A DNA stretch of 5,019 nucleotides from a virus (IMGVR_UViG_2534682234_000013), one strand, 5' to 3'; shown: positions 1 through 5,019, counted from the first letter of the stretch. The notes: a model not told the origin generated them from the letters alone. Made by a program: numbers and translations.

Positions 1-87
1 CTTACCTTTCACGCGAACGCTGCCAGTTAATACTGACCCAGCTGGTTATGGCGGGTCTGGCAGACTATCAGTTTGGTTGTTACAGAC

Positions 88-114
88 GCCTTCAGTCCTG
101 AAGGCTTTTTATTT
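88..114 (+). terminator. Rho-independent terminator-like hairpin with T-tract (possible tR'-like or upstream-gene terminator)
   Basis: Inverted repeat GCCTTCAG (88-95) / CTGAAGGC (98-105) gives a 7-8 bp stem with a very short loop, followed directly by TTTTTATTT (106-114). It lies between the end of an upstream reading frame and the methyltransferase start. Assignment as a lambdoid tR' is inference; the late promoter is not visible in the window. Confidence 0.45.
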
Positions 115-199
115 GTGGTAAATGGGCGGCTGGTGGGTGTAAGGGGCACCCACCAGCCATCTGCTCATGCGTTGGGTTCACAAGCAAACCTCAGGCCCA

Positions 200-218
200 C
201 TGCTTTGCGCAAAAGCAG
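200..218. promoter_or_regulatory. 19-bp near-perfect palindrome CTGCTTTGCGCAAAAGCAG in the methyltransferase 5' leader
   Basis: Arms CTGCTTT (200-206) and AAAGCAG (212-218) are exact reverse complements around a GCGCA core. No T-tract follows, so it is not a typical intrinsic terminator. It sits ~33 bp upstream of the ATG at 251, suggesting an operator or leader RNA hairpin. Confidence 0.25.
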
Positions 219-250
219 AATGAGCCTATCAGAGACAGGCTTAATGATCC

Positions 251-1309
251 ATGCTTAATACTGTAAAAATATCCAGTTGTGAGTTAATCAACGCCGACTG
301 CCTGGAATTTATGCGGTCGTTACCCGAAAATTCTGTTGACCTGATAGTCACGGACCCGCCGTACTTCAAAGTGAAACCCGAGGGCTGGGATAACCAGTGG
401 GCGGGTGATGAAGATTACCTGAAGTGGCTGGACCAGTGTCTTGCGCAGTTCTGGCGGGTGCTGAAACCTGCCGGAAGTCTTTACCTGTTCTGTGGCCATC
501 GTCTGGCATCTGACACCGAAATCATGATGCGTGAGCGGTTTAACGTGCTGAACCATATCATCTGGGCAAAGCCGTCCGGACGCTGGAACGGGTGCAACAA
601 GGAAAGCCTGCGGGCGTATTTCCCCGCCACAGAGCGCATTCTGTTCGCAGAGCATTATCAGGGGCCGTATCGTCCGAAAGATGCCGGGTATGAGGCGAAG
701 GGTAGGACACTGAAACAGCATGTGATGGCCCCGCTGATTGCTTACTTTCGTGATGCGCGCGCTGTCCTGGGGATAACGGCAAAACAGATTGCAGATGCCA
801 CAGGAAAGAAAAACATGGTGTCGCACTGGTTCAGTGCCGGTCAGTGGCAGCTGCCGAACGAAAGCGATTATCTGAAATTACAGGCACTGTTTGCCCGGGT
901 GGCAGAAGAGAAGCATCAGCGGGGTGAACTGGAAAAGCCCCACCACCAGCTGGTGGATACGTATGCCTCTCTGAACCGACAGTATGCGGAGCTGCAGAGT
1001 GAATATAAGCATCTGCGGCGGTATTTCGGTGTGACGGTGCAGGTGCCGTACACCGATGTGTGGACGTATAAACCGGTGCAGTACTATCCAGGGAAACATC
1101 CGTGCGAAAAACCGGCAGAAATGTTGCAGCAGATAATCAGCGCAAGCAGTCGTCCGGGAGACCTGGTTGCAGATTTCTTCATGGGGTCGGGGTCGACAGT
1201 GAAAGCAGCGATGGCGCTGGGACGTCGTGCAACTGGCGTTGAACTGGAGACTGAACGTTTTGAGCAGACGGTGCGGGAAGTACAGGATTTAATCATTCGT
1301 AACGGATGA
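251..1309 (+). CDS. Phage orphan DNA methyltransferase, beta-class N6-adenine/N4-cytosine family (PF01555-like); target site unknown
   Basis: 352-aa ORF. N-terminal motif IV 'DLIVTDPPYF' (aa ~31-40) preceded by a conserved 'ADCLEFMRSLPENSVDL' region; C-terminal AdoMet-binding motif I 'FFMGSGST' preceded by 'HPCEKP'. The order IV -> target-recognition region -> I defines the beta group of amino-MTases. No adjacent restriction endonuclease ORF. Start at 251 chosen because the conserved N-terminal region begins immediately after it; the Shine-Dalgarno is weak. Confidence 0.9.
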   Translation: MLNTVKISSCELINADCLEFMRSLPENSVDLIVTDPPYFKVKPEGWDNQWAGDEDYLKWLDQCLAQFWRVLKPAGSLYLFCGHRLASDTEIMMRERFNVLNHIIWAKPSGRWNGCNKESLRAYFPATERILFAEHYQGPYRPKDAGYEAKGRTLKQHVMAPLIAYFRDARAVLGITAKQIADATGKKNMVSHWFSAGQWQLPNESDYLKLQALFARVAEEKHQRGELEKPHHQLVDTYASLNRQYAELQSEYKHLRRYFGVTVQVPYTDVWTYKPVQYYPGKHPCEKPAEMLQQIISASSRPGDLVADFFMGSGSTVKAAMALGRRATGVELETERFEQTVREVQDLIIRNG

Positions 1310-1349
1310 GATTGCGGAGTTAATCATGCGTCGTTATTATTCAGCAATC

Positions 1350-1425
1350 GGCCCTTTAGCTCAGCGGTGAGAGCGAGCGACTCATAATCGCCAGGTCGCT
1401 GGTTCAAATCCAGCAAGGGCCACCA
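1350..1425 (+). tRNA. ileZ: tRNA-Ile (anticodon CAU, lysidine-type; reads AUA), phage-borne ileX-like copy
   Basis: Manual cloverleaf: acceptor GGCCCTT (1350-1356) pairs with AAGGGCC (1415-1421); D-arm GCTC/GAGC; anticodon stem AGCGA/TCGCC with loop CTCATAA (anticodon CAT at 1383-1385); T-arm GCTGG-TTCAAAT-CCAGC; discriminator A plus encoded CCA (1423-1425). Very similar to my recollection of E. coli ileX. The name ileZ follows the usage I recall for Stx-phage tRNA clusters and is not verified. Confidence 0.85.
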
Positions 1426-1426
1426 A

Positions 1427-1492
1427 CCGCCACTAGCTCATCAGGAAAGAACGTCACCCTGTGCGAGATTCGGAGTCCCCGGTGGCGGTCCA
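1427..1492 (+). pseudogene. Truncated/degenerate tRNA-like element (tRNA remnant at the position where a tRNA-Arg 'argN' sits in Stx-phage clusters)
   Basis: 7-bp acceptor-like complementarity CCGCCAC (1427-1433) / GTGGCGG (1482-1488), then T + CCA (1489-1492). 'TAGCTCA' (1434-1440) matches the U8-A9-D-stem start of both flanking tRNAs. The element is only ~63 nt before CCA, and I could not fold a canonical anticodon arm or T-arm; the T-loop-like TTCGGAG lacks complementary stems. Likely non-functional or highly atypical. Confidence 0.35.
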
Positions 1493-1505
1493 TTATCGGT
1501 ATTCT

Positions 1506-1582
1506 GCGTTGTTAGCTCAGCCGGACAGAGCAATTGCCTTCTAAGCAATCGGTCACTGGTTCGAATCCAGTACAACGCACCA
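1506..1582 (+). tRNA. argO: tRNA-Arg (anticodon UCU; reads AGA, possibly AGG)
   Basis: Manual cloverleaf: acceptor GCGTTGT (1506-1512) / ACAACGC (1572-1578); D-arm GCTC-AGCCGGACA-GAGC; anticodon stem ATTGC/GCAAT with loop CTTCTAA (anticodon TCT at 1540-1542); variable loop CGGTC; T-arm ACTGG-TTCGAAT-CCAGT; discriminator A plus CCA (1580-1582). The name argO follows recalled Stx-phage nomenclature and is not verified. Confidence 0.85.
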
Positions 1583-1869
1583 CACCACACTTATCTGCCC
1601 TGACTCTCTTTTGCGGGCTTTTTATTACAGGAAAGACACCGGACAGTGAAATGTTAAATGCCTCACAATTCAGGCAGTTGACTGTTGCCTGACATGCTGA
1701 GCGTTTGTTAAAAAAATCCTGCATGATGAATCCCCCTGAGCGGCGGGGCATAATGACAGATGTTTGGTTGCGTATTGTATAGGCAAGTTGCGGATTCTGT
1801 CTGGTCATTGCAGAATTCACCGGGAGGCACCCGGCATCATGCTGTATACAGAGATTAGGCATATATCTA

Positions 1870-1894
1870 GGCTTCTCATCGCAGGAGCCTTTTT
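1870..1894 (+). terminator. Intrinsic terminator-like hairpin with T5 tract (+ strand)
   Basis: GGCTTC (1870-1875) pairs with GGAGCC (1884-1889) as a 6-bp stem including one G-U pair, with loop TCATCGCA, followed by TTTTT (1890-1894). Confidence 0.4.
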
Positions 1895-1900
1895 ACATGC

Positions 1901-1926
1901 AAAAAAAAGCCCGAGTGGGTTCGGGC
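1901..1926 (-). terminator. Intrinsic terminator oriented for the minus strand (hairpin GCCCGA/TCGGGC followed on the minus strand by U8)
   Basis: On the + strand: AAAAAAAA (1901-1908) then GCCCGA (1909-1914), loop GTGGGT, TCGGGC (1921-1926). Read on the minus strand this is a GC-rich 6-bp hairpin followed by TTTTTTTT, a canonical rho-independent terminator. Nothing T-rich follows it on the + strand. Confidence 0.45.
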
Positions 1927-1986
1927 AACAGCATGAGATACTTGCATTGTCATTTTTATCGTGTGGATTTTAACCAGGGTTTATAA

Positions 1987-2018
1987 GGCTGCGCAACTGC
2001 GCGGCCTTTTTCGTTTTG
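1987..2018 (+). terminator. Strong rho-independent terminator upstream of the esterase gene
   Basis: GGCTGCGC (1987-1994) / GCGCGGCC (1999-2006) form an 8-bp GC-rich stem (one G-U) with tetraloop AACT, followed by TTTTTCGTTTTG (2007-2018). It lies ~90 bp upstream of the ATG at 2106. Confidence 0.6.
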
Positions 2019-2105
2019 CGGGCTGCGGTTCTCCTCTTTTGATTCTCCTTGTGGCCGGACCGTGGCCCGCAACTGTTGAGGAAAATCCCGGAAAGGGGAG
2101 GAATA

Positions 2106-4043
2106 ATGACATTTAAACATTATGATGTTGTCAGGGCGGCGTCGCCGTCAGATCTTGCGGAAAAGCTGACACACAAACTGAAAGAGGGCTGGCAGCCGTT
2201 TGGTAGTCCTGTGGCCATAACCCCTTATACCCTGATGCAGGCGATTGCCGCGGAGGGGGATGTGACCACGCCAGTGGTTGTGCCCGGCACGGGGGATGGT
2301 GGCTATCCGGGAGTGGTCACCACGGAGCCAGATTATTACTACGTTATTCCACTGGCCGGGCAGTCGAACGGCATGGCTTACGGTGAGGGGCTTCCTCTGC
2401 CGCAGACATATGACCGTCCTGACCCGCGTATAAAGCAACTGGCTCGTCGCAGCACAGTGACGCCGGATGGCGCTCCCTGTAAATATAACGACATTATTCC
2501 GGCAGACCACTGTCTGCATGATGTACAGGACATGAGCCGTCTTAACCATCCGAAAGCTGACCTGTCGAAAGGTCAGTACGGAACCGTGGGGCAGGGGCTG
2601 CATATTGCCAAAAAGCTGCTGCCGTTTATACCGGCGAATGCGGGTATTCTTCTGGTTCCGTGCTGCCGTGGTGGTTCAGCTTTCACCACCGGGGCAGATG
2701 GAACATACAGTGACGTGACCGGTGCCTCAGAGAGTTCTACCCGCTGGGGTGTGGGCAGGCCGCTGTATAAGGATCTCATCGGTCGTACAAAAGCCGCGCT
2801 GGCAAAGAACCCGAAAAATGTGCTGCTTGCCGTGGTGTGGATGCAGGGGGAATTTGACTTTGACGGAACGCCAGCAAATCACACAGCCCGTTTTACAGAA
2901 GTAGTGGAACAATATCGTACGGACCTTGCAGATATGGTGGGACAGTGCGCTGGTGGTTCTGCTGACGGTGTTCCCTGGATATGTGGAGACACAACTTATT
3001 TCTGGAAGCAGAAGAGCGAATCCACTTACCAGACGGTGTACGGCAGTTACAAAAACAAAACGGAAAAGAATATTCACTTTGTGCCGTTCATGACCGATGA
3101 GAACGGAGCAAATGTCCCGACGAACAAACCGGAAGAAGACCCGGATATTCCGGCATCAGGATATTACGGTGCGGCCTCCCGGACGTCGGCAAACTGGACG
3201 TCAGCAGACCGTGCGAGCCATTTCAGCTCATGGGCACGCAGGGGGATTATTTCTGACCGTCTTGCCTCAGCGATTCTTCTCCATGCAGGACGGACGGCTG
3301 AACTGGTGGGTGGGGAACAGGTTGTGATGCCGCCGGATGAGAAGCCGTCACCGGACACACCATCAACACCGTCAACGGACGGGAAATCAGTGACAACGCT
3401 GCTTTATTACCGTGCAACAGAGTCAGGTGGTTTACTGAATCCGCAGGGATGGGGAGCTGAAGGAGGGCGTGCATTGGTAGTTGATGATGCAGGTGCTGCA
3501 GGAGGTAAGGCGCTGAGGTGGACCAAACAGACAGGAAGTTCCTCGTGGTTTATGCAGCATGATGCCGGTAATGGCGCAGACCTGCTGGAGAAGGGCGGGC
3601 TTATCAGTTGTCGTTTTAAAGTTGATGGCACACTGACAGCTAATCAGTACGCACTGGCGCTGTACTGGCCGGTTTCTTCACTGCCTCAGGGCGTCACACT
3701 GGAAGGTAATGCCGGTCATAACCTGCTGGCGTCGTTTTACGTACAGAGCGATGCCACAGACCTTAATGTGATGTACCACAAGGGAAATGCTGGTCAGAAC
3801 ACGAAGCTGGGGTCATTCGGCGCATTTGATAACGAATGGCATACGCTGGGCTTCCGTTTTGCCGGTAACAACAGTATTGAGGTGACGCCGGTCATTGATG
3901 GTAAGGACGGGACGCCGTTCATGCTGTCACAGTCACCGGTCGGCACGTTTACGGCAGACAAATTGCGCGTGACCGATATCACTAGCGGTGCGACATATCC
4001 GGTGCTGATTGAAAGTATAACAGTGGAAGTGAATAACCCGTAA
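2106..4043 (+). CDS. nanS-p: Prophage-encoded sialate (9-O-acetyl-Neu5Ac) O-acetylesterase, NanS-p type: N-terminal DUF1737-like region, SGNH/SASA esterase domain, C-terminal domain of unknown function
   Basis: 645-aa CDS. Start ATG 2106 preceded by strong SD GGGGAGG (2095-2101); the six-frame ORF extends upstream to a TTG at 2049 with no RBS. 'PLAGQSNGMAYGEG' contains the GQSN block of SGNH-type sialate O-acetylesterases with the presumptive nucleophile Ser. The N-terminus 'MTFKHYDVVRAASPSDLAEKL...' matches my recollection of the NanS-p paralogs encoded downstream of stx in Stx phages and in stx-negative lambdoid prophages of EHEC. A Pro/Ser/Thr linker 'PPDEKPSPDTPSTPSTDGKS' separates a ~220-aa C-terminal domain. 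Function is inferred from motif and synteny. Confidence 0.8.
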   Translation: MTFKHYDVVRAASPSDLAEKLTHKLKEGWQPFGSPVAITPYTLMQAIAAEGDVTTPVVVPGTGDGGYPGVVTTEPDYYYVIPLAGQSNGMAYGEGLPLPQTYDRPDPRIKQLARRSTVTPDGAPCKYNDIIPADHCLHDVQDMSRLNHPKADLSKGQYGTVGQGLHIAKKLLPFIPANAGILLVPCCRGGSAFTTGADGTYSDVTGASESSTRWGVGRPLYKDLIGRTKAALAKNPKNVLLAVVWMQGEFDFDGTPANHTARFTEVVEQYRTDLADMVGQCAGGSADGVPWICGDTTYFWKQKSESTYQTVYGSYKNKTEKNIHFVPFMTDENGANVPTNKPEEDPDIPASGYYGAASRTSANWTSADRASHFSSWARRGIISDRLASAILLHAGRTAELVGGEQVVMPPDEKPSPDTPSTPSTDGKSVTTLLYYRATESGGLLNPQGWGAEGGRALVVDDAGAAGGKALRWTKQTGSSSWFMQHDAGNGADLLEKGGLISCRFKVDGTLTANQYALALYWPVSSLPQGVTLEGNAGHNLLASFYVQSDATDLNVMYHKGNAGQNTKLGSFGAFDNEWHTLGFRFAGNNSIEVTPVIDGKDGTPFMLSQSPVGTFTADKLRVTDITSGATYPVLIESITVEVNNP

Positions 4044-4048
4044 GCAGG

Positions 4049-4096
4049 AAAAAAAGGCCGCCGGGGCAGGGAAAACAAGGAGCCAGAACCGGCGGC
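4049..4096 (-). terminator. Hairpin with adjacent A7 tract on + strand (minus-strand-oriented terminator-like structure), just 3' of the esterase stop
   Basis: AAAAAAA (4049-4055), GCCGCCGG (4057-4064) ... CCGGCGGC (4089-4096); 8-bp GC stem around a ~24-nt loop with possible inner GGC/GCC pairing. On the minus strand the hairpin is followed by a U-run. No T-tract follows on the + strand, so it is unlikely to terminate the + strand late transcript. Confidence 0.3.
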
Positions 4097-4126
4097 AAAT
4101 GTCGTTATATCCAAAGCAAAACATGC

Positions 4127-4155
4127 AGGACACTTTTTTAACCAACAGGTATTAA
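4127..4155 (+). promoter_or_regulatory. Candidate sigma70-like promoter upstream of the small-ORF/holin block
   Basis: AGGACA (4127-4132; matches the GACA of TTGACA), 17-bp spacer, TATTAA (4150-4155; 5/6 to TATAAT), ~35 bp upstream of the ATG at 4191. Weak -35, hand-scanned only. Confidence 0.25.
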
Positions 4156-4190
4156 CGATGTCAACACCATATCAATAACCGGGAGGGATA

Positions 4191-4373
4191 ATGAGATTTG
4201 TACAGCTTATTTTATTGTATTTCTGCACGGTGGTGTGCACGTTATATCTGGTAAGTGGCGGGTATAAGGTTATCCGGAACTATATACGCAAAAAGATTGA
4301 TGCCGCGGCGGCGGAAAAAATCAGCGCCAGCCAGTCAGCCGGAACAAAACCCGAAGAGCCTCTCATTTCGTAG
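4191..4373 (+). CDS. Small (60 aa) single-pass membrane protein, unknown function
   Basis: ATG 4191 preceded by strong SD GGGAGGG (4181-4187, 3-nt spacing to ATG). N-terminal hydrophobic segment 'FVQLILLYFCTVVCTLYLV' followed by a basic juxtamembrane stretch 'YKVIRNYIRKKIDAAAAEK' and a polar tail. No family recognised. Confidence 0.55.
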   Translation: MRFVQLILLYFCTVVCTLYLVSGGYKVIRNYIRKKIDAAAAEKISASQSAGTKPEEPLIS

Positions 4374-4410
4374 CAACTTTCTTAACAACACCTTTCAACG
4401 AGAAAATCCC

Positions 4411-4680
4411 ATGTCAGAAATAAAATCTCTGGTCACTGCTGAAGCAGTGAAGGACGTCCTGCGCTCTGAAGAAGTCAGAAGCGCACTGAAACAGCAACTC
4501 CGCCAGAATCTTGAGGCGCGTCTTGATGCTGAAGTGGATGCCATTCTGGATGAGCTGCTGGGGGGACCGGCTGCTCCTGAGCCTGAAGACGGCGCGGGTG
4601 ACAGTGCTGTTTCAGATGGCGTTGTGTCTCAGCCTGACGGTAGCAGTGAGCCTCAGCCTGGCGGCGAAATGATGATGTAA
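4411..4680 (+). CDS. Small (89 aa) highly acidic protein, predicted N-terminal helix plus disordered Pro/Asp/Glu/Ser-rich tail; unknown function
   Basis: ATG at 4411 with weak purine-rich SD (GAGAAAA). By my count 19 Asp/Glu versus 7 Lys/Arg. The six-frame ORF extends upstream to 4255, but that extension overlaps the 4191-4373 ORF in another frame, so the internal ATG is preferred. Coding status not certain. Confidence 0.5.
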   Translation: MSEIKSLVTAEAVKDVLRSEEVRSALKQQLRQNLEARLDAEVDAILDELLGGPAAPEPEDGAGDSAVSDGVVSQPDGSSEPQPGGEMMM

Positions 4681-4755
4681 CCATACGCAGGGGCTGTCGG
4701 TGTGAGCTGATGCCCCTCCTGTTGTTGTGAGCTTCCGGATTGCGGGAGACGGGGT

Positions 4756-4971
4756 ATGTACCAGATGGAAAAAATCACAACGGGTGTGTCATACACCACG
4801 TCAGCGGTGGGGACGGGATACTGGTTACTGCAGCTGCTGGACAAAGTCTCTCCGTCCCAGTGGGTGGCGATAGGTGTGCTGGGGAGTCTGCTGTTTGGCC
4901 TGCTGACGTATCTGACTAACCTGTATTTCAAAATCAGAGAGGACCGTCGTAAGGCGGCGCGGGGAGAGTAA
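4756..4971 (+). CDS. S: Class II holin, phage 21 S (S21/pinholin)-like, with dual-start motif (Met1, Met4)
   Basis: 71 aa '[10 protein letters not shown]...[36 protein letters not shown]'. The C-terminal half closely matches my recollection of the phage 21 S holin. Two hydrophobic segments and a charged C-terminus; SD GGAG (4745-4748) 7 nt upstream of ATG 4756; second in-frame Met at codon 4 (4765). Followed 4 nt later by the next ORF (translationally coupled). Confidence 0.88.
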
Positions 4972-4975
4972 AGCG

Positions 4976-5019
4976 ATGAAGAAAAAATACGAACTGGTTG
5001 TTAAAGGGATAAATAATTA
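4976..5019 (+). CDS. 5' end of next late gene (partial, 14 codons 'MKKKYELVVKGINN'); by position after the holin possibly the endolysin or another lysis-cassette gene
   Basis: ATG 4976 preceded by SD GGGGAGAG (4961-4968) lying within the holin 3' end; the ORF runs off the window end. Product cannot be determined from 14 residues. Confidence 0.45.
   Translation, partial: MKKKYELVVKGINN

Follow-up and report, generated by a model that had tools for sequence, protein, structure and literature searches.

The closest described counterparts of this locus are the "dyads of Hfq-binding sRNAs" that lie between the late promoter and the lysis genes in at least eight prophages of strain Sakai (Tree et al. 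2014, PMC4104026). The dyad arrangement was described in that study (Mol Cell 55:199), in which Hfq was crosslinked to RNA in Sakai, and again by Sy & Tree (2021). For two anti-sRNAs from such dyads, AgvB and AsxR, trans targets have been demonstrated along with a fitness phenotype: AgvB sponges GcvB by occluding its R1 seed, and AsxR destabilizes FnrS by invading its terminator (Tree et al. 2014, PMC4104026). These anti-sRNAs retune host sRNA networks, with AgvB aiding growth in bovine rectal mucus and AsxR derepressing heme oxygenase. The anti-sRNA EcOnc03 of prophage Sp9 was recovered in five of five CRAC experiments and detected by Northern analysis at 56, ∼54, and 51 nt, is destabilized in an hfq mutant, and has heterogeneous triphosphate 5′ ends (PMC4104026). 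From the plus strand of Sp9, the same work lists EcOnc28, a moderate Hfq CRAC peak seen in three of five experiments and reported without a Northern (Tree et al. 2014, PMC4104026, Table S2).

The Sp5 homolog of this plus-strand RNA, EcOnc27 (also called sRNA103), gives Northern bands of ∼235/247 nt, and the literature that we searched holds no mapped ends for it beyond these sizes. Overexpression of the Sp5 homolog, which belongs to the STnc100 family, raises fimZ and espA transcripts. In EDL933, RNA-seq reads fall on all 11 of the 11 Rfam-annotated STnc100 copies, one of which is Northern-positive. A recent preprint relates STnc100 to PasD and reports that STnc100, AgvB, and AsxR recur near Pas sRNAs (Zhu, Shabalina & Storz 2026). 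SNPs in the STnc100 homolog of Stx2 phages were recently flagged as predictors of HUS.

We analyzed a 5,019-nt stretch of viral DNA (IMGVR_UViG_2534682234_000013; hereafter, the window) in which 523 bp (positions 1583–2105, 48% GC) separate the 3′ end of tRNA-Arg(TCT) at 1582 from the ATG of a nanS-p/SASA-esterase gene at 2106. This gap looks empty because RefSeq annotates no feature, and no ncRNA, under it. We put the probability at about 0.88 that the apparently empty spacer is a convergent Hfq-binding sRNA module of lambdoid prophages that has already been published, in which case a seemingly vacant spacer is accounted for by known biology. Its contents are real and functional but ordinary, and they are published apart from a few fine details: both RNAs, the dyad arrangement, where this lies with respect to the moron site, and how the seed varies have all been described. 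The exact 39-bp cargo junction, the overlap of a third terminator with the −35 element of the anti-sRNA, and the census of three seeds were not found in the literature. The features of the gap and its left flank are as follows, in window coordinates.

1350..1425, plus strand: tRNA with anticodon CAT (Met according to ARAGORN; ileZ, tRNA-Ile, in RefSeq and in the Sakai annotation of the identical gene)
1429..1499, plus strand: degenerate argN remnant, which aligns to the intact tRNA-Arg(TCG) of Sp4 and Sp5
1506..1582, plus strand: tRNA-Arg(TCT) of the argO type, the left border of the gap
1583..1623, plus strand: argO trailer, with a weak hairpin (GCCC 1597–1600 / GGGC 1615–1618) and a T5 run (1619–1623)
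1624..1662, no strand: cargo (moron) junction, 39 bp, empty here, with the slot mapped by blastn
1670..1692, plus strand: 7-bp inverted repeat TCAGGCA/TGCCTGA with TTGACT in the loop, directly 5′ of the Rfam STnc100 match
1692..1900, plus strand: STnc100-family sRNA, a full-length match to Rfam RF02076
1869..1895, plus strand: predicted intrinsic terminator of the STnc100-type RNA (hairpin 1869–1890, 8-bp stem, T5)
1902..1961, minus strand: anti-sRNA EcOnc03 of the AgvB/AsxR family, from Rfam and the exact published sequence
1926–1909 (hairpin), minus strand: predicted EcOnc03 terminator, followed by a T-run
1967..1996, minus strand: probable sigma-70 promoter of EcOnc03 (−10 TAAAAT at 1972–1967, 5/6 matches; 18-nt spacer; −35 TTGCGC at 1996–1991, 3/6 matches)
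1985..2018, plus strand: third, rightward predicted intrinsic terminator (hairpin 1985–2008, 10-bp stem, T5-CG-T4)
2019..2105, plus strand: nanS-p 5′ leader (SD GGGGAGG at 2095–2101, ATG at 2106)

The order of genes around the gap (methylase, tRNA-Ile(CAT), tRNA-Arg, gap, nanS-p, holin) agrees with annotated genomes and bears out the stx-proximal synteny that an earlier note, made from the sequence by itself, had recognized. The argN remnant is missing ∼11 nt of the anticodon/variable region and receives no call from ARAGORN or Rfam. A prophage of E. coli O157:H7 strain F3113 contains the gap at 100% identity, and the gap was matched in 909 of 5426 complete E. coli genomes, at a median of three places per genome. 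The view that it contains no credible ORF was upheld by a Pfam search and by comparison of paralogs. The five longest ORFs of the gap have no Pfam match, and seven paralogous copies have no ORF in common: starts, ends, and lengths differ, and an SD is absent. The sole peptide stretch common to the paralogous copies is the translation of an invariant RNA core. The left edge of the gap is variable among these seven copies.

On the plus strand, the Rfam STnc100 model (RF02076) matches positions 1692–1900 with a score of 173.4 bits against a gathering threshold (GA) of 47, covering model positions 1–206 of 206 (E value of 1.8e-40). RNAalifold analysis of the STnc100 segments of the seven paralogs yielded 38 consensus pairs, of which 6 exhibit compensatory double changes, and the window copy itself carries a GC-to-AU change in the long-range closing helix. 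The minimum free energy fold of 1692–1900 alone is no better than those of shuffled sequences (z −0.53). Structural support for the RNA is therefore provided by the covariance model and by covariation, because the folding energy of the single sequence is unexceptional. Two cores are kept across the seven copies, 1723–1742 (0.89 identity) and 1823–1842 (0.96 identity), and the middle (∼1743–1800) is variable. The score, the full-length match, the covarying fold, and the synteny all agree, and on these sequence grounds the predicted plus-strand RNA is a member of the STnc100 family. The window copy shares its full-length covariance model match, its fold, and its prophage site beside an esterase gene with STnc100 (RF02076) of Salmonella and E. 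coli prophages and with PasD; unlike in those, its central segment is copy-specific, and the fimZ and espA effects seen on overexpression belong to the Sp5 homolog only, not to the window copy.

Only weak promoter-like sites were found for this RNA. One of these, CGGACA(1640)-18-CACAAT(1664–1669), would place the start near 1676 and would yield an RNA of ∼220 nt with a predicted 5′ end, a length similar to the ∼222 nt reported from Northern analysis of the Sp4 and Sp11 homologs. Because the published Sakai coordinates are offset by ∼134–137 bp from the current RefSeq record, the mapping was re-anchored on the EcOnc03 sequence, and with this anchor the EcOnc28 peak maps to ∼1796–1844, inside the STnc100 match. 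We identify the predicted RNA at 1692–1900 as the Sp9 RNA that carries the EcOnc28 peak; its counterpart in the Stx2 phage is the homologous EcOnc27/sRNA103.

The 7-bp inverted repeat at 1670–1692, with TTGACT in its loop, is present just as the earlier note had described it. What is conserved of it is a CAG/CTG core alone, found in 5 of 7 copies; with this partial retention and no compensatory double change, the repeat was rejected as a conserved structure. The TTGACT hexamer was also rejected as a −35 element, since no −10 element with A2/T6 and at least 4/6 matches occurs at a spacing of 16–19 bp, and the loop offers no convincing promoter element. The repeat would belong to the RNA only if transcription started upstream of ∼1670.

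On the minus strand, positions 1902–1961 match the Rfam AgvB model (RF02702) marginally, with 56.6 bits against a GA of 56 (E value of 4.5e-9), and the AsxR model (RF02703) below threshold, with 46.8 against a GA of 63. With E values of this size, the two above-threshold matches in the gap lie well outside chance expectation. The 51-nt EcOnc03 sequence (Tree 2014, Fig. S4) matches this strand exactly from 1955 to 1905. EcOnc03 consists of a variable 5′ "seed" (∼1960–1943), a body, a terminator stem (1926–1909), and a U-run (1908–1901); its longest, 56-nt form starts at ∼1960, and it folds into a small hairpin plus the terminator. In the seven-copy alignment the body and terminator (1903–1942) are conserved and the 5′ region (∼1943–1957) is variable. 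EcOnc03 exhibits the architecture of the anti-sRNAs, namely a conserved ∼42-nt 3′ region with a terminator and a variable 14–18-nt 5′ region within a total of 51–60 nt, and it also shares their genomic setting: a longer sRNA converges on it, and it lies downstream of PR′, between the moron site and nanS-p. A relaxed promoter scan predicts a start at ∼1960, in agreement with the longest mapped 5′ end, and the −10 element TAAAAT is kept in 5 of the 5 copies that carry an anti-sRNA. Judged by sequence, the putative minus-strand RNA is a member of the anti-sRNA family of Tree 2014, and specifically EcOnc03. The suggestion that the gap might be a locus for small RNAs was therefore well founded, in that Rfam finds both STnc100 and an AgvB/AsxR-family RNA there.

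Two other labels for the minus-strand RNA were considered and rejected. The AgvB label does not suit it, since its 5′ region, CGAUAAAAAUGACAAUGCA, lacks the defining CACAACA mimic of GcvB R1, although the score just reaches the threshold. The AsxR label was set aside with a score below the gathering threshold and no adjacent stx2.

We compared the 5′ 21 nt of EcOnc03 with 16 core sRNAs by RNAduplex, a screen whose negatives are soft, and no pairing was better than those of shuffled seeds. The best was with GcvB (−11.5 kcal/mol, z 0.07); the AgvB–GcvB control in the same screen gave −16.9 kcal/mol, with 3 of 200 shuffles as good. A match to MicA noticed by eye failed its control (−9.7 kcal/mol, 26 of 200 shuffles as good) and was discarded, and no published target for EcOnc03 was found in the literature. 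Among the matches listed, drawn from an IMG/VR pattern scan and other loci, all of at least 126 copies carry one of the three published seeds, and EcOnc03 is the second most common of these seed types. No new seed variants were present among at least 120 IMG/VR loci listed plus further known loci, with the qualification that the anchored scan pattern demanded an exact −10 element and body and that divergent members would escape it.

A consensus scan of the gap found 3 terminator sites, against 0.9 ± 0.9 in dinucleotide shuffles, and so substantiates the three terminator-like hairpins in alternating orientation that had been reported from the sequence; the transcript ends suggested at the same time (1894, 1901, and 2018) each fall in one of the three T/U runs. 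The stem of the 1869–1895 terminator displays compensatory changes across copies. The STnc100-type and EcOnc03 genes end back to back: 18 nt lie between the two terminator hairpins (1890 to 1909) and 5 nt between the T-runs (1895 to 1901). Each hairpin consequently has an A-tract at one edge and a T-tract at the opposite edge. The third terminator has a folding energy of −19.1 kcal/mol for the 46 nt from 1975 to 2020 (z −3.3), its hairpin is kept in 6 of 7 copies, and the −35 element of the leftward EcOnc03 promoter sits within its stem (1985–2008). We infer that this terminator serves as a backstop that keeps nonantiterminated transcription out of nanS-p and the lysis genes.

The nearest relative of the gap is the spacer between argO3 and ECs_1781 in Sakai Sp9, which has the same 523 bp, is identical at 522 of 523 positions, and contains the exact EcOnc03 sequence. 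The flanks correspond as well, with the methylase, ileZ, the argN remnant, and argO on the left and nanS-p on the right. The two loci differ at position 1868 (T versus C), just outside the STnc100 terminator stem, and in the prophage mosaic around the gap, which is ∼90% identical over 1–3277 and carries other genes between nanS-p and the holin. All transcript evidence for the window is carried over from Sakai and EDL933. The AsxR/EcOnc27 (sRNA103) dyad of Sp5/933W consists of the same two RNA families, convergent and back to back between cargo and nanS-p, and has the same third terminator and anti-sRNA −10 element. However, stx2AB occupies the Sp5 junction, and the seed of the Sp5 anti-sRNA (CGAUUAUUAAAACG...) targets the terminator loop of FnrS. 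With AgvB (EcOnc01) of Sp10/Sp17, the window RNA has in common the 3′ body, the terminator, the promoter −10 element, and the position. In contrast to AgvB, it lacks the CACAACA mimic of GcvB R1, its pairing with GcvB is no better than that of shuffled seeds, and it scores 56.6 (GA 56) where true AgvB of Sp10 scores 96.5 with the AgvB model. Moreover, AgvB dyads among the matches listed usually follow a tciA moron, unlike the window copy. Both RNA families are also found in Sp10, and Sp4 and Sp11 have only the STnc100 member. In Stx phages, Rfam places STnc100 together with AsxR (Sp5 type) or with an EcOnc03-like RNA (Stx1 phage, 7888) at the homologous position.

Aligned to Stx phage genomes, as the earlier note had suggested, the flanks match stx-proximal sequence, with breakpoints at 1623 and 1663. 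By blastn against VT2-Sakai, window positions 1199–1623 align to the tRNA region and stop 55 bp short of stx2A, and positions 1663–2207 align from 46 bp after stx2B. These limits indicate that the 1341-bp stx2AB cassette replaces just 39 bp (1624–1662). Homology to Sp5 on the left, upstream of the stx2A promoter region, stops exactly at 1623, the end of the T5 run. A homolog of window positions ∼1649/1663–2105 lies downstream of stxB in VT2-Sakai/Sp5, in Stx1a phages, and in Shigella phage 7888, and the part that corresponds to ∼1649/1663–2025 is placed between the stxB stop codon and nanS-p. Because this ∼440-bp homolog persists beside the toxin genes, stx does not replace the module. The gap had been described as ∼520 bp at the position of stxAB, which does not hold, since its homolog sits downstream of stxB and is retained with the toxin. 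Nor is it an Stx toxin locus, there being no stxA or stxB within 1583–2105 though both flanks match stx-proximal sequence. The 3′ end of stx1AB in Stx1 phages lies just upstream of the junction, and 25 of the 39 junction bases are those of the post-stx1B trailer; the junction position in Sp10 and Sp11 is taken by a tciA/TerB-like moron, and the Sp4 junction is empty and shorter still. The toxin slot proper is the ∼39 bp right after the tRNA-Arg trailer and is unoccupied in this prophage.

We also took a census of the slot in the IMG/VR contigs among the matches listed and in further known loci, scoring four markers within 1.5 kb. Immediately upstream of EcOnc03-type dyads lies argO in at least 33 cases and stx1B in at least 8 (33 of 41 classifiable loci empty, among the matches listed). 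The AsxR-type dyads have stx2B immediately upstream in 17 of 17 cases among the matches listed. For AgvB-type dyads, again among the matches listed, the upstream marker is tciA in 41 cases and argO in 11, and none of the four markers lies within 1.5 kb in 9.

The idea of a vacant cargo site survives for these 39 bp and fails for the rest of the gap, which Stx phages keep. An account that treats the full 520 bp as a functionless, unfilled landing site for stxAB can appeal to the genuine synteny with Stx phages and to a cargo junction inside the gap where paralogs hold stx2AB, stx1AB, or tciA and this prophage holds no cargo. We regard it as the least probable of the explanations weighed, because junction behavior is limited to ∼39 bp (1624–1662), and the other ∼440 bp are kept downstream of stxB in Stx phages, match two RNA families, and correspond to experimentally detected Hfq-bound RNAs. 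A deletion scar, left as a remnant spacer when an ancestral Stx phage lost stxAB, is highly improbable. The EcOnc03-type dyad does follow stx1B in Stx1 phages (at least 8 copies, among the matches listed), and 1624–1662 is identical to the post-stx1B trailer at 25 of 39 positions, which together make a shared ancestry of the flank plausible. Nevertheless, when the gap was compared with the Sp5 cassette by sensitive blastn, no stx-derived sequence emerged, only chance 8–13-mers inside stx2AB, and the homology of the left flank breaks off sharply at the T-run (1623). An empty slot is moreover the majority state for EcOnc03-type dyads (33 of 41 classifiable, among the matches listed) and recurs with a different junction in Sp4, and the direction of gain versus loss is not readable from these data. 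The proposal of a deletion scar in the earlier note is accordingly not sustained, there being no stx remnants and the empty junction being the commonest state for this dyad type among the matches listed. That note had also set against its own proposals the case of a conserved, ordinary intergenic region with no transcripts beginning or ending inside it. The first part of this description applies, in that many lambdoid phages share the spacer as a conserved intergenic module, but the second does not, as published transcripts start and end within it (Tree et al. 2014).

An explanation of the gap chiefly as a cis-acting transcription barrier, with the RNAs as by-products that have no trans function, is unlikely but deserves more weight than the two preceding accounts. 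Three rightward terminator-like elements occur within 440 bp at a site between the late promoter and the lysis genes, the third (1985–2008) is kept in 6 of 7 copies and even without an anti-sRNA in Sp4, and the review by Sy & Tree (2021) calls the reason for the dyad arrangement unclear. Conservation nonetheless reaches beyond the terminators to an internal multihelix fold with compensatory changes, and the anti-sRNA has its own conserved −10 element. Demonstrated trans targets and a fitness phenotype of the siblings AgvB and AsxR, and the altered fimZ/espA levels on overexpression of the Sp5 STnc100 homolog, also argue against mere by-products. A barrier is in any case compatible with the sRNA dyad as an added role rather than an alternative. 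It is very doubtful, even more so than the deletion scar, that the gap encodes one or more small proteins in a dual-function RNA. EDL933 RIBO-seq coverage values exceed 1 for several STnc100 copies, and in most copies the invariant core can be read without a stop in a frame that includes NSPGGTRHHA. The type and position of the start codon, both termini, and length (29–54 codons) vary between copies, however, and the Stx1 copy lacks a start in the NSPGGTRHHA frame, with no SD upstream. There are no Pfam matches, and the shared peptide is a translated invariant RNA helix.

With the convergent sRNA module as the preferred reading, the dyad would sit, in EHEC/EPEC lambdoid prophages, between the cargo site of the Q-dependent late promoter and the nanS-p/lysis genes. 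The plus strand would produce a ∼210–220-nt STnc100-family RNA with a multihelix fold and its own intrinsic terminator. From the minus strand, EcOnc03 (51–56 nt) would be transcribed from its own promoter ∼60 bp away, converging on the STnc100-type RNA. Next would come the third rightward terminator, with the EcOnc03 −35 element inside its stem, and then the nanS-p leader. The distinct 5′ 14–18 nt of EcOnc03 may pair with and antagonize a host core sRNA, by analogy with AgvB and AsxR; the mechanism is drawn from analogy because CACAACA is absent and no partner in the screen was better than shuffles. In the lysogen, the three rightward terminators would keep transcription of the tRNAs, the sRNA, and any moron out of the lysis cassette, and after induction Q-modified polymerase would read through them. 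Such insulation of nanS-p and the lysis genes is probable from general lambdoid biology.

The location of the −35 element inside the 1985–2008 stem implies that Q-antiterminated late transcription and anti-sRNA synthesis could exclude each other. A joint reading, which we offer tentatively and consider possible rather than probable, is that EcOnc03 has a host target of its own (a core sRNA or mRNA other than GcvB or FnrS) and that the dyad constitutes a switch coupled to lysogeny and lysis. If this is true, then the dyad is more than two neighboring genes. The nanS-p leader that follows the third terminator is itself a mosaic, with three alternative versions that are differently combined among paralogs.

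The stretch between the 3′ end of tRNA-Arg(TCT) and the nanS-p start codon (window 1583-2105) has an empty look because RefSeq/PGAP ncRNA annotation is missing there. Among the top 25 genomes listed, none carries such an annotation under this interval (L002 6001-6523); the Rfam models STnc100 and AgvB both score above threshold within it.

By aligning the paralogous copies of this gap, we found that the nanS-p 5′ leader (window 2023-2105; alignment columns ~545-640) occurs in three alternative versions, with combinations that differ between copies. These versions are distributed as follows, where Sp4, Sp5 and Sp10 are prophages of E. coli O157:H7 Sakai and Sp5 is its Stx2 phage.

Leader version common to the window and phage 7888
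Leader version common to Sp5 and Sp4
Leader version common to the Stx1 phage and Sp10

The different combinations of the three versions imply a putative recombination breakpoint at ~2020, immediately 3′ of the third terminator, the rightward hairpin that precedes the leader. The STnc100-type RNA is retained both in Sp4 and in another Sakai prophage, Sp11, and neither of them yields an AgvB/AsxR-family match at E ≤ 0.001 (region L008 ~2937-3060 in Sp4, L009 ~3074-3210 in Sp11). In place of the RNA of that family, Sp4 has a distinct GC hairpin, GCCCGCGCAGGGAGACGCGGGC; the third terminator is preserved in this prophage. The position may be occupied by some other convergent partner RNA.

Comparison of window 1-5019 with the Sakai prophage Sp9 (L005) likewise revealed a mosaic, wherein identity reaches 99.8% in the gap but is just ~90% overall across window 1-3277. 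Homology stops inside the 3′ part of nanS-p, and the window carries DUF1378 and DUF826 ORFs (4191-4373 and 4411-4680) ahead of the holin gene, whereas Sp9 lacks them.

Downstream of nanS-p, window 4097-4131 exactly matches the published Northern probe for EcOnc33, a terminator-associated RNA of ~71 nt from the − strand of Sakai Sp6. The − strand of window ~4048-4131 is predicted to form a hairpin and, 3′ to it, a strong terminator composed of GCCGCCGG...CCGGCGGC and U7 (z −3.5); it has no Rfam family. This segment seems to represent a further known Hfq-bound sRNA, in antisense orientation and directly downstream of nanS-p.

To the left of the gap, a degenerate argN tRNA-Arg(TCG) copy (1429-1499, +) lies between tRNA-Ile(CAT) and tRNA-Arg(TCT). 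It is missing ~11 nt near the anticodon/variable region and is called by neither ARAGORN nor Rfam; the gene is intact in Sp4 and Sp5, and the Sp10 copy is also degenerate, but in a different way. ARAGORN assigns the CAT-anticodon tRNA at 1350-1425 to Met, and the identical gene is annotated in Sakai and RefSeq as ileZ, a tRNA-Ile whose decoding follows lysidine modification. A sub-threshold antisense Rfam match to "Plastid-ycf2" on this tRNA is spurious.

Upstream of the methylase gene, at 127-191 (−) and 92-120 (+), are a weak, sub-threshold Rfam match to Pseudomonas P26 (24.3 bits, E 0.07), a long GC inverted repeat (GGCTGGTGGGTG...CACCCACCAGCC) and, at ~92-115 (+), a terminator-like hairpin with a T-run.
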